A DNA stretch of 64,000 nt from an uncultured Gammaproteobacteria bacterium (GTDB lineage: Bacteria > Pseudomonadota > Gammaproteobacteria > Xanthomonadales > Rhodanobacteraceae). The translations under genes and the position numbers were made by a program. The notes beneath the pieces are model-generated. The model was not told the DNA's origin and did not search any database. It saw only the letters and a list, made by a program, of their open reading frames with translations. Positions within the stretch are counted from its first letter, which is position 1. Each line of letters starts with the position of its first letter. Shown one piece after another: positions 6,178-49,444 of the stretch. The stretch covers positions 6,314 to 70,313 of the forward strand of contig CAVPQF010000078.1 in NCBI GenBank assembly GCA_963707225.1, read 5' to 3'.

Positions 6178-6624
6178 ATGAATGCACCGAGAAAAACCGT
6201 CTGCCTGTGGATCGCTCTCGCGCTGTTGTCGCTGGCGCTGTCGGCGTGCCGGCGCACACCGGACGAGGAGCAGGTGCGCGCAGCCATCGCGTCGGTCGCG
6301 CAAGCGGCCGAAGCGGGTTCGGCCGGTGATGTGGGCGCCTCGCTGAGCGAGGATTTCGACGGCAATGCAGGGCAGCTGGACCGGCGCGGGCTGACCGGCA
6401 TGATCCGGCTGCTGTCGCTGCGCGGCGAGCACGTCGGCGTGACCATGGGGCCGGTATCGATCGAGCCGCGTGGCGAACGGATGGTGGCGACCTTCACGGT
6501 CACGCTGACCAGCGGCGGCCGCCTGCTGCCCGACCAGTTGGGCCTGTACCAGGTCGAGTCCGCGTGGCGCAAGGAAGATGGCGAATGGCGTTGCTATACG
6601 GCCAGCTGGAAACATTCGCTGTAA
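6178..6624 (+). CDS. Hypothetical lipoprotein (NTF2/SnoaL-like size and pattern)
   Basis: 148 aa with a signal peptide and LSAC lipobox (LALLSLALSAC). No family motif recognised with certainty. Confidence 0.55.
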   Translation: MNAPRKTVCLWIALALLSLALSACRRTPDEEQVRAAIASVAQAAEAGSAGDVGASLSEDFDGNAGQLDRRGLTGMIRLLSLRGEHVGVTMGPVSIEPRGERMVATFTVTLTSGGRLLPDQLGLYQVESAWRKEDGEWRCYTASWKHSL

Positions 6625-6697: not shown

Positions 6698-9439
<2,742 letters not shown>

Positions 9440-47085: not shown

Positions 47086-47254
47086 CAAACGACTGCGGGT
47101 TCATCCGTTCGAAATGCCGGTCCAGTTCGGCGCGGGAAGCGCGCATGAAGTCTCCGGTCACGCCGCACTCGGACCAGCCCTGAAACGACCCCGTTTGGCC
47201 CGGCCCATCGCCGCGACCGCAGGCAGACGATGGCGCAGCTCCGTCGGCGGCGAA

Positions 47255-47438: not shown

Positions 47439-48089
47439 ATGAAAACTGATCGTCAACTTCAAGAAGACATCCTGAACGAGCTCGATTGGGAGCCGTCGGT
47501 GGACGCCAGCCGCATCGGCGTCGAGGTATCGCAAGGGGTGGCCACCTTGTCCGGCCACGTCGAGAGCTACACGCAGAAGTGGGCGGCCGAACGCGCAGCG
47601 CAGCGCGTCGCAGGCATCAAGAGCGTTGCGATGGACATTGACGTGGTTTTGCCCGGGCCGCATCAACGCGATGACACGGAGATCGCCAAGGCGGCCACGG
47701 ATGCCATCGGCTGGAACGTTTCGATTCCGAAGGATACGGTCAAGCTCGTGGTCGAAGATGGTTGGGTCACGCTTTCCGGCGACGTCGAGTGGGCGTTCAT
47801 CCGAAACGCTGCGGAAGCCAGTGTCCGCCACCTGTACGGTGTCAAGGGCGTGGTCAACAAGATCAGCATTCGCCCGCATATCGAGCCGCGCGGCGTCAAG
47901 ACCAAGATCGAGGCGGCGCTCTATCGTCGCGCGCACCTCGATGCCGCCGCCATCACGGTTGGCGTGGATAAGGGTACGGTGACCCTGACGGGCGAGGTCG
48001 ATTCGCTGGCCGAGCGCAACACGGTTGAATGGGCGGCATGGAGCGCGCCCGGCGTACAGAAGGTTGTCGACAACCTCGTTGTCGCCTGA
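47439..48089 (+). CDS. BON-domain protein (OsmY-like, multiple BON repeats)
   Basis: Start is the ATG at 47439 behind GAGGA. Repeated BON pattern: RIGVEVSQGVATLSGHVESY...VAGIKSV, VKLVVEDGWVTLSGDVEW...VKGVVNKI, and ITVGVDKGTVTLTGEVDS...GVQKVVDNL. Confidence 0.85.
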   Translation: MKTDRQLQEDILNELDWEPSVDASRIGVEVSQGVATLSGHVESYTQKWAAERAAQRVAGIKSVAMDIDVVLPGPHQRDDTEIAKAATDAIGWNVSIPKDTVKLVVEDGWVTLSGDVEWAFIRNAAEASVRHLYGVKGVVNKISIRPHIEPRGVKTKIEAALYRRAHLDAAAITVGVDKGTVTLTGEVDSLAERNTVEWAAWSAPGVQKVVDNLVVA

Positions 48090-48108
48090 GCAGTCGCCTG
48101 CAAGAGTG

Positions 48109-48136
48109 AAGAGGCCGCATCGATGCGGCCTCTTTT
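48109..48136 (+). terminator. Rho-independent terminator of the BON gene
   Basis: AAGAGGCCGCA-tcga-TGCGGCCTCTT followed by TT. Confidence 0.8.
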
Positions 48137-48140
48137 CGTG

Positions 48141-48930
48141 GTGCGCCCGGCAGGGCGCACCTGCTTGGAGGTGAAAGTCCTCTATCCACCCGGCAAGGGG
48201 AAGGATTAGCCAGAGGCAGGGGCGATCGGGTGACTGGTCGTCTGAAGGAAGCCCGAGGCAAAACGCTGGCCTGATGACAAGACCGCCGGGAGCGGTCTTG
48301 AACAGCCGCAGGCTGGCCCCGAAGGGGTGAGCCGCAGGGATGCGGCGAATAACAAGAAGCGGATACGAGGCGACGTGTCGGGGTGAGGCAGCCATGAAGG
48401 CCAAAGCCCAGTACTTGCACGGAACGACACGGCGTATATCCGACAGGCATCCCGCAAGGGGACTTCCTTCGGTCGTAAGCGGGAAGGCAGGTGCGTCATA
48501 CCCGGGGAGATCTCGCCTCGTGCCTGACCAGCCCGAAGGGCGCAGGACAGCCGTAGGCTGGTCCTGAGCGTAGCGAAGGATGCGCGCAGCGCACAAAGGG
48601 CGACGCCGCAGGGCGGAGCGAGAAGTCAGCAGAGGCCATAGTAGGTGCGGTATGACCGAAGGGCCGAACCTGTCACGAGTGGCAAGTCACGCGTGCTCTC
48701 TGCGCGTCTTGGGCAGAAGTTCCGGTGCAAGCCGGGAGCCTTGGTCAGAGCTGGACGGGCCGGAAGTCCGGAAGGTGATTGGGGTGTCCATAGGACGACA
48801 GGCGACACGACGAACGAAACAAGCTCAAGGCCTCGAAGTTCGCATGAACTACATGGCAGACGGGAACCGCCGTATGCGGAACCGCACGTACGGTGGTGTG
48901 GGAGGGGGCCGGAGTATTCCGGCTACCTAC
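48141..48930 (+). mobile_element. Group II intron RNA, apparently ORF-less (no reverse transcriptase/maturase)
   Basis: The 5' end GTGCGCCCGGCAGGGCGCAC fits the GUGYG consensus. Domain V, ACCGCCGTATGCGGAACCGCACGTACGGTGGT (48866-48897), has a 10-bp lower helix, an AC bulge and a CGC triad. A domain VI hairpin GCCGGA-gtat-TCCGGC carries a bulged A at 48925, and the 3' end reads ...CCTAC. No ORF in any frame across the 790 nt resembles an RT. Boundaries are good to a few nt. Confidence 0.8.
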
Positions 48931-48952
48931 CCGATGTTCGACCGCGGCGGAT

Positions 48953-49444
48953 TCAGGTGGCGCGATTGTGCGAACGCATGGCGCGCTGCTTCTCGATCTG
49001 CCAGTCACGCTGTTTTTCGGTGTCGCGCTTGTCGTGCTCCTGCTTGCCGCGGGCAAGGCCGATCTCGACTTTCACCTTGTTGCCTTTCCAGTACATCGCG
49101 GTGGGCACCAGGGTGTAGCCCTTGCGCTCGACGGCGCCGACCAGCTGGTCGATCTCCTTGCGGTGCAGGAGCAGCTTGCGGGTGCGCCGGTCCTCGGCGA
49201 TGACGTGGGTGGAGGCGCTGATCAATGGCGGAATCGATGCGCCCACCAGGAAGATCTCGTTCTTCAGGACGACGGCATAACTGTCGCCGAAGTTGATCCG
49301 GCCCGCGCGCAATGCTTTCAGCTCCCAGCCCTGCAGCGCGACGCCGGCCTCGAAGCGCTGGTCGATGTGATACTCGAAGCGCGCACGCTTGTTGAGCGCA
49401 ATGGTGCCGCCGCCCTTGTTGTCCTTGTCCTTTGCCTTGGCCAT
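48953..49444 (-). CDS. smpB: SsrA-binding protein
   Basis: 163 aa. Contains IALNKRARFEYHIDQRFEAGVALQGWELKALRAGR and the tail KQEHDKRDTEKQRDW. Confidence 0.95.
   Translation of the reverse strand: MAKAKDKDNKGGGTIALNKRARFEYHIDQRFEAGVALQGWELKALRAGRINFGDSYAVVLKNEIFLVGASIPPLISASTHVIAEDRRTRKLLLHRKEIDQLVGAVERKGYTLVPTAMYWKGNKVKVEIGLARGKQEHDKRDTEKQRDWQIEKQRAMRSHNRAT

Follow-up and report, generated by a model that had tools for sequence, protein, structure and literature searches.

In the 64-kb stretch of DNA analysed here, referred to as the window, a block of genes encoding PolX, a host-attachment protein and a BON-domain protein is followed by a group II intron of 795 nucleotides (nt) at positions 48141-48935 of the plus strand, and then by the block smpB-ratA-rnfH-bamE-fur. 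The stop codon of the BON-domain gene ends at 48089 and is followed by a hairpin and by TTTT at 48133-48136; on the far side, the stop codon of smpB, on the minus strand, begins at 48953. The element is very probably a non-autonomous class IIC intron without an open reading frame (ORF), of the kind known as HYERs, that would be mobilised in trans and whose flanks would derive from two insertion sites. Its parts and immediate surroundings are as follows (IBS and EBS, intron- and exon-binding sites; D, domain; J, junction; Ins, insertion; tmRNA, transfer-messenger RNA).

48109-48134, plus strand: BON-gene terminator hairpin, a perfect 13-bp inverted repeat (AAGAGGCCGCATC/GATGCGGCCTCTT)
48135-48140, plus strand: IBS1 (UUCGUG), the last 6 nt of the 5' exon, pairing 6/6 with EBS1 CAUGAA (one G-U)
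48141-48935, plus strand: intron, delimited by Rfam matches, family alignments and the ends of flank homology at 48135 and 48936
48146-48505, plus strand: domain I, closing helix 48146-48164 with 48487-48505 (inverted repeat); D1 core conserved in relatives
48277-48350, plus strand: Ins1, 74 nt, four hairpins, within a conserved 11-nt D1 bulge (GAYGAACARGAA / GACGAACAGGAA)
48393-48398, plus strand: EBS1 (CAUGAA), in the 8-nt loop of a GGCA-GCCAUGAA-GGCC hairpin with a 4-bp stem, from the Rfam consensus structure
48450-48475, plus strand: Ins2, 26 nt, a hairpin within the AUA bulge of the adjoining D1 helix
48527-48594, plus strand: Ins3, 68 nt, a hairpin within the loop of a domain II hairpin
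48618-48665, plus strand: J2/3 and domain III (AGAAGUCAGCAGAGGCCAUAGUAGG...GAAGGGCC), covered by the RF01998 match at 48606-48664 and near-invariant in the family
48669-48864, plus strand: domain IV, ORF-less, 196 nt, basal stem CCUGUC/GACGGG, common to the plasmid-borne ORF-less relatives
48866-48897, plus strand: domain V (48867-48896 without an extra A-U pair), matched by RF00029
48899-48933, plus strand: domain VI, in which seven pairs change on both sides across 8 members
48936-48952, plus strand: 3' exon, matching the sequence after the T-run of the tmRNA (ssrA) terminator in Rhodanobacter relatives

The whole window was scanned against Rfam with gathering scores as the cut-off. Exactly three families scored above them, all group II intron families on the plus strand and all within the element.

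48302-48466, plus strand: RF02001 (D1-D4-3), 78 bits
48606-48664, plus strand: RF01998 (D1-D4-1), 41 bits
48865-48935, plus strand: RF00029 (D5-D6), 50.1 bits against a gathering score of 40

The initial annotation of this DNA had proposed a group II intron here and an Rfam scan as a check; the significant covariance-model matches to three families and the covariation within D5-D6 confirm the proposal. Relatives were gathered by blastn against plasmids and score 130-142 bits with RF02001 and 57-74 bits with RF01998; the window element is collinear with them, and its RF02001 score is lower because Ins1 interrupts D1. All plasmid relatives open with GTGCGCC directly after a hairpin and a T-run ending ...TG or ...TC and close with ...CCTAC(C/T)C(G/A)AT, and the sequences beyond are unrelated. 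Across eight family members the D5-D6 structure is 99% paired with nine pairs changed on both sides, compared with about 40-50% pairing when the partners are slid as a control. Six intact relatives have 280 invariant positions in common, of which the window element keeps 257; its mismatches cluster in D2 and distal D6, and its D5 is identical to the relatives' consensus.

The 5' end, GUGCGCCCGG, begins at 48141 and reads GUGCG, as the annotation had recognised in fitting it to GUGYG; the likeness it proposed to the start of Ll.LtrB, a IIA intron, would say nothing about class. The 3' boundary had been placed at 48930, which is 5 nt short. The true end is 48935 (...CCUACCCGAU, closing GAU), where the alignment of eight members ends, and the smpB-locus homology of relatives begins at 48936. 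A domain VI hairpin with a bulged A was correctly described, and the A chosen (48925) was not the right one: because the intron ends at 48935, the branch point is A 48929 (CCUACCC), which is bulged, lies 7 nt from the end and belongs to a UA bulge conserved in the family. The description of domain V (AC bulge, CGC triad, 3-bp upper helix, 32 nt) is upheld, with the triad at 48868-48870, the bulge at 48886-48887 and a GAAC loop; all eight sequences compared form its 13 pairs (100%), and one pair is compensatory. IIC introns typically have a CGC triad. Taken as a whole, the predicted ribozyme is complete: it has all of domains I-VI, domain V is intact, and J2/3, domain III and a branch A that is bulged are in place.

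The element is assigned to class IIC by its target site, by the protein of its relatives and by its short domain V with the CGC triad, in agreement with the class C call first made. Ten members of the family (eight full elements, namely that of the window with L001-L005, L008 and L009, and two copies known from their 5' ends, L057 and L058) sit right behind a hairpin and a T-run that ends ...TG or ...TC, and PMC1702495 and PMC4424553 give intrinsic terminators as the insertion sites of IIC introns. The protein-based test of class uses ORF-bearing relatives, the window element encoding no protein: the intron-encoded protein of L004, the nearest of these, scores 480 bits (E = 8e-143) against the GsI-IIC reverse transcriptase (RT; 6AR1), 375 bits against another group II intron RT/maturase (7UIM), 138 bits against a IIB maturase RT (6ME0) and 127 bits against LtrA. 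Its domains are RVT_1 and GIIM only, with no endonuclease domain.

The 46-nt stretch holding the BON terminator (48100-48145) folds at -26.1 kcal/mol (z = -5). The intron starts 4 nt after the T-run, in keeping with the 4-5 nt originally estimated; a simple terminator scan missed this hairpin, solely owing to its short T-run. The hairpin is also present in relatives whose BON protein is 98% identical, and there no intron follows it. Pairing of EBS1 with the end of the 5' exon was examined by inspection in five members.

Window: EBS1 loop CAUGAA, 5' exon end UUCGUG
L009: EBS1 loop CACAAA, 5' exon end UUUGUG
L005: EBS1 loop GAAAAA, 5' exon end UUUUUC
L001: EBS1 loop CAAAAA, 5' exon end UUUUUG
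L058: EBS1 loop CAGAAU, 5' exon end UUUUUG

The loop covaries with the 5' exon across relatives, a probable sign of mobility in the lineage, as is a 3' flank in the window that is exactly the site after the tmRNA terminator. Near-identical copies also have distinct 5' flanks: the BON terminator in the window; the terminator of a gene that is secretin-type by its C-terminal translation, read by eye, in L058, a copy from a JGI metagenome; and a third site in P0140. The last was predicted as a protein; in fact it is a further intron copy, translated in antisense. As a candidate for a copy at the tmRNA site, P0140 was rejected: its 5' flank is unlike the tmRNA of relatives and marks a further site.

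No ORF of RT/maturase length (about 465 aa) is listed on the intron strand across the element, and tblastn with two related intron-encoded proteins gave no match better than E of about 1 in the element or the whole window, so that the reported lack of an RT or maturase is sustained. None of the ORFs inside the intron is present in the protein collection by exact look-up, and no RT remnant was found by tblastn and blastn of relatives' intron-encoded proteins against D4, the element and the window. Domain IV had been called tiny; at 196 nt it is ORF-less rather than tiny. It is homologous among the window element and three plasmid-borne introns (L002, L008 and L009), measures 185-194 nt in the comparison of these four, and is shared by L058 at 96% identity. 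The alignment of the first four has 47 predicted pairs, 13 of them changed on both sides; its basal stem is conserved, and a second, long one pairs GUGCUCUCUG with CRGGCGACAC. The ORF-less form is, on this comparative evidence, an apparently old lineage with a conserved structured domain IV, not a fresh deletion. The relatives that set the two forms apart are these.

L003, Pseudomonas putida pKF715B: ORF-bearing; a 1,427-nt domain IV implies the gene, for which the PLSDB gene table has no entry
L004, Azoarcus sp. KH32C pAZKH: ORF-bearing
L005, Paraburkholderia PPGU16_p2: ORF-bearing
L002, 3932-4613: ORF-less; IncP-1 plasmids of Aeromonas and Pseudomonas, between a korB-type ParB gene and the gene at the kfrA position
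L008, 2434-3117: ORF-less; IncC plasmid of Citrobacter freundii, upstream of traL
L009, 2436-3114: ORF-less; P. putida megaplasmid

Eleven PLSDB plasmid records hold a near-full-length L002 form. The sequences gathered place the lineage at many different terminator-proximal sites, both in a chromosome of Rhodanobacter type and on plasmids (IncP-1, IncC and Pseudomonas). The three plasmid-borne ORF-less introns are 679-684 nt long and unannotated and carry a 46-nt insertion of their own near the 5' end. A related intron in plasmid p3 of Caballeronia zhejiangensis (L001, 4277-4778) is broken after domain I by about 500 nt and has lost domain III; considered as an ORF-less intron, it was set aside, since by eye the insert reads like an N-terminal fragment of an IS110-type transposase.

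HYERs, hydrolytic endonucleolytic ribozymes, were reportedly described by Liu et al. in Science in 2024 (doi 10.1126/science.adh4859). In PMC11754743 and PMC12990946 they are ORF-less IIC introns that multiply in their genomes and act as RNA-only hydrolytic endonucleases with a 6-nt guide, HYER1 being 637 nt long. The window element can be likened to them by description: it is a putative IIC ribozyme without an intron-encoded protein; it is several hundred nt long (about 627 nt in its module-free form); it has a 6-nt guide loop, with CAUGAA at 48393-48398 as the candidate guide (EBS1 here, TRS in HYERs); and its lineage has more than one copy or site. It differs in carrying three extra hairpin modules, which bring it to 795 nt, and it belongs to a proteobacterial lineage; the one HYER for which those papers record a source appears there under the species abbreviation 'Apu'. 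With canonical IIC introns (B.h.I1, O.i.I1, GsI-IIC and L003-L005) the element shares D1-D3 and D5-D6 (about 80% identity in D1, D5 identical), the 5' end GUGCGCCCGG, the 3' end CCUACYCGAU, the terminator hairpin and T-run as target, and the EBS1 hairpin. The canonical relatives found here have an RT/maturase of 463-465 aa in a 1.43-kb domain IV, whereas domain IV of the window element is structured and free of any coding remnant. In bacteria, group II introns lacking an ORF were for a long time held to be rare and to depend on a helper intron; a related intron's protein can act on them in trans, as experiments in a cyanobacterium have shown (PMC4424553). The element resembles those introns as an ORF-less derivative of a retroelement lineage present at several sites; it differs in that the reviewed cases have the helper intron in the same genome (PMC4424553), where the search here covered 64 kb, and in that the ORF-less form is an old lineage and not a recent deletion derivative.

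On this reading, read-through of the BON terminator would produce an intron transcript, and the RNA would fold and excise itself by hydrolysis or via branch A 48929. The free RNA would pick a new site by a stem-loop and about 6 nt of pairing to EBS1 and reverse-splice into single-stranded DNA; a DNA copy would then be made by an RT that a IIC relative in the same cell supplies in trans, or, with lower likelihood, by some other RT. This copy would have acquired, or uniquely kept, its three modules in loops and bulges where the core need not be disturbed, and two intron copies, at the BON and tmRNA sites, would have recombined or been joined by the assembler. Among the fates first suggested for the element, a trans-mobilised or otherwise mobile derivative fits best and a pure fossil worst.

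The initial annotation had remarked that the RNA is larger than expected for class C, and the family alignment accounts for this. The length of D1-D3 is 370-377 nt in ORF-bearing relatives, 421-424 nt in the plasmid-borne ORF-less introns and 529 nt in the window; the RNA is large because of three insertions (74, 26 and 68 nt), and D4 adds about 195 nt. The insertion sites were mapped onto the Rfam structure of a relative and their exact limits taken from P0140, whose amino acids are identical to the window over 48639-48595, 48526-48476, 48449-48351 and 48276-48133 and which lacks 48527-48594 (Ins3), 48450-48475 (Ins2) and 48277-48350 (Ins1). L058 is 90-96% identical to the window and likewise lacks all three, and Ins1 and Ins2 are also absent from close relatives. 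The modules are therefore present or absent between otherwise near-identical copies, with clean boundaries, and all three lie in bulges or loops.

Taken in isolation, Ins1 has a folding energy of -42.6 kcal/mol (z = -5). It recurs at the same D1 bulge in L057, the 5' fragment of a diverged intron, at about 92% identity and with compensatory changes. A covariance model of the motif (R1), built from three copies, also finds this structure of about 80 nt and four hairpins outside introns. The copies besides that of the window are as follows.

L057, 4282-4361, minus strand: Ins1 motif, inside the diverged intron
L059, 2499-2580: Ins1 motif
L060, 2468-2545: Ins1 motif
L048, 3189-3281: Ins1 motif, inside a T-arm-like hairpin just after tRNA-Ser
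L039, 372-450, minus strand: Ins1 motif

In Pantoea plasmids the motif lies inside the loop of a CCCGCGC/GCGCGGG hairpin, and in Klebsiella inside a fragment of the tRNA-Phe T-arm; the Klebsiella form is absent from E. coli genomes. The single-stranded stretches GACAA, UUGAACAGCC, CAGGGAUG and CGAAUAA are invariant. In six copies 98% of the cells are paired and 11 of 19 pairs are changed on both sides, figures that lean high because the alignment was fitted to the model. Rfam matched no family to the Pantoea motif, and Ins1 scores 25 bits with RF02902 (AaHKsRNA22), below the cut-off of 39.8. A hammerhead-like CUGAUGA...GAAC around Ins1 was discarded as a candidate, as CUGAUGA is part of the intron core and the other copies of the motif lack it. 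Genome contigs were searched for insertions at the Ins1 site with the pattern GGCCTGAYG N{60,90} AACARGAAGCGGATA; the single match, L007, has no intron similarity and was rejected as a module-bearing family member, being a chance match.

Ins2 contains a 25-mer, CCCGCAAGGGGACTTCCTTCGGTCG, that occurs exactly at 28 sites in 27 metagenome loci (L030-L056) otherwise unlike the intron. It lies mostly in the loop of a hairpin resembling a terminator or a repetitive extragenic palindrome (REP), and in L030, L033 and L053 it abuts a long terminator hairpin; REP-like hairpins similar to its hosts also occur without it. The Ins1 motif lies about 190 nt from a copy of the 25-mer in L039 and L054. No Rfam family covers the 25-mer sites, the 25-mer is absent from viral contigs, and no near-copies were found in the window or in the fetched loci. 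Several contigs of assembly CAJDTN01 carry it, and in L037 two REP-like 25-mer units (6589-6613, plus strand, and 7502-7526, minus strand) face each other in inverted orientation some 900 nt apart, an arrangement that recalls the two ends of a small composite element. A pairing of Ins2 with the D1 strand UCUGAAGGAAG was treated as being at chance level. Ins3 resembles Ins1 weakly, having direct repeats and scoring 13 bits (E = 0.7) with model R1.

The three insertions could tentatively be taken as members of unrecognised families of tiny structured modules that settle specifically in single-stranded hairpin loops, an interpretation we regard as unlikely on the sequences at hand. In that role they would parasitise, or supplement, a ribozyme that already lives as a parasite. 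Their pattern suggests loop-targeted insertion or precise loss, for instance at the RNA or cDNA level during retromobility; no target duplication or link to a transposase was seen for the modules. In being small GC-rich hairpins that recur in the intergenic DNA of many genomes, they resemble REP sequences and bacterial interspersed mosaic elements (BIMEs), elements like miniature inverted-repeat transposable elements (MITEs) and RF02902. They differ from all of these in their location, within a ribozyme and within hairpin loops that are not their own, and Ins1 differs further in its conserved four-hairpin motif with invariant single-stranded stretches. The ORF-less IIC intron is an already known kind of element; what is unusual here is the three modules and the position on a junction left by rearrangement or by assembly.

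The intron coincides exactly with a break in synteny, at 48135/48136 on the left and 48935/48936 on the right. The left flank has 96% DNA identity to the BON locus of relatives up to 48135, and the genes that follow BON in those relatives (OmpA family, phosphoribosyltransferase/hydrolase and HSP20) are absent from the window. The right flank is 88% identical to Rhodanobacter from 48936, and homology to L025 covers 51964-48936, stopping there. In relatives a convergent tmRNA gene adjoins smpB, with a hairpin common to both. Read on the intron strand, these relatives have the tmRNA, the hairpin and TTTTTTATG, followed by GTTCGAAGG, and the 3' exon in the window starts GTTCGACC at exactly the point between the two. 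No tmRNA was found in the window by the Rfam scan or a further check. The 3' junction was probably made by insertion behind the tmRNA terminator, and the 5' junction lies behind the BON terminator. As the flanks come from two insertion sites, at least two copies would exist that have undergone recombination, or else the assembly passed from one copy into another.

That the context is an artefact, with the contig joining two genomic places through a repeated intron that is itself real, is quite possible, if short of probable. The ends of homology at 48135 and 48936, the missing genes downstream of BON and the missing tmRNA would all follow from such a join, and the source is a 72-kb contig of metagenome type. 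A Logan contig with an identical BON gene breaks 16 nt into the intron, which is weak support for a repeated intron. However, real recombination between two copies would give the same picture, and the module-bearing 5' two-thirds of the intron is contiguous with the BON flank. Because the P0140 copy lacks the modules, any join would lie in the last 340 nt or so.

With either origin of the junction, the smpB/tmRNA bidirectional hairpin of relatives is gone from the window (48936-49444, minus strand), and smpB transcripts would run antisense into the 3' end of the intron and continue for about 800 nt, as far as the BON hairpin. Rhodanobacter proteins are 85% identical to the BON protein, and SmpB falls in a 90% cluster with Rhodanobacter species, pointing to a Rhodanobacter-like host within the Gammaproteobacteria. 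Further upstream, at 47165-47201, the window is without the roughly 900 nt that hold a short-chain dehydrogenase gene in its closest relatives (L010, 1748-2762). That gene is placed between the host-attachment and BON genes, and a more distant relative adds a nitroreductase gene in this variable region.

Several observations weigh against the reading of the element as a trans-mobilised ORF-less IIC intron with flanks from two sites. IIC introns are small ribozymes that lack EBS2 and recognise the 3' exon through EBS3, but no D1 column complements the first base of the 3' exon across eight members, leaving EBS3 and its pairing with IBS3 without a candidate, and tblastn found no helper RT in the window. 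Alignment of the 5' part of D4 between ORF-less and ORF-bearing introns gave no convincing conservation, so a retained protein-binding site in D4a is unsupported by it. CGTG, the 4-5 nt just before the intron, is missing where the closest relatives have their BON site, which reads TTTTTTTTG followed by CGAAC; the 5' junction therefore has no simple history. Bases consistent with CGTG precede the P0140 copy, the antisense translation being identical through 48133. That second copy, on another NCBI/ENA contig, is known as an antisense translation alone. Domain II of the element is remodelled, and Ins1 and Ins2, placed in highly conserved D1 bulges, may impair folding. Splicing and mobility are themselves deduced from the DNA.

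A different account, which we think unlikely, is that of an RNA-only endonuclease of HYER type or a domesticated ribozyme, which would need no protein, would cut or invade single-stranded DNA or RNA matching its 6-nt guide, and would be spread or kept for that activity, for example against plasmids and phages or in the processing of smpB/tmRNA transcripts. It would explain why the ORF-less lineage persists over distant hosts and plasmids with a conserved structured D4 and why no helper is seen in the window, and the HYERs of PMC12990946 and PMC11754743, likewise IIC introns without an ORF, hydrolyse DNA and have a target recognition site of 6 nt. Domain VI of L058 (about 2100-2143 of the reverse complement) is a perfect hairpin (GGGAACGAGCCGGA/UCCGGCUCGUUCCC) with no bulged A as far as the contig reads, which would fit purely hydrolytic chemistry; lying at a contig end, it may be a real branch-less variant or a contig-end artefact. 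The window copy, on the other hand, keeps the canonical branch-site bulge, the occupation of new DNA sites needs a DNA copy and hence some RT, and cleavage of DNA or RNA by this element is putative, by analogy with HYERs.

More improbable again is an inert fossil that has lost its protein gene, neither splices nor moves, and decays under junk insertions: the 168 nt of insertions (two within conserved D1 bulges), the remodelled domain II, RF02001 and RF01998 scores roughly 30-45% below those of relatives, the lack of an RT in the window and an intergenic spot with no selection for splicing would suit it, but 92% of the family-invariant positions are kept, D5 matches the consensus exactly, EBS1 departs from relatives exactly so as to match its own exon, the insertions, each a closed hairpin fold, are all confined to loops or bulges, and near-identical copies at other sites argue for recent activity of the lineage.

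The preferred reading, a trans-mobilised ORF-less IIC intron, extends the HYER-type ribozymes, which attract interest because they are small and cut DNA with RNA only, by a lineage that is proteobacterial and in part carried on plasmids. The module-bearing and module-free forms, otherwise near-identical, amount to a natural experiment on which peripheral additions a IIC ribozyme tolerates, and the modules, if mobile, would be a new kind of miniature element. The insertion behind a tmRNA terminator and the junction at the intron illustrate how such repeats reshape genomes, or confuse them.

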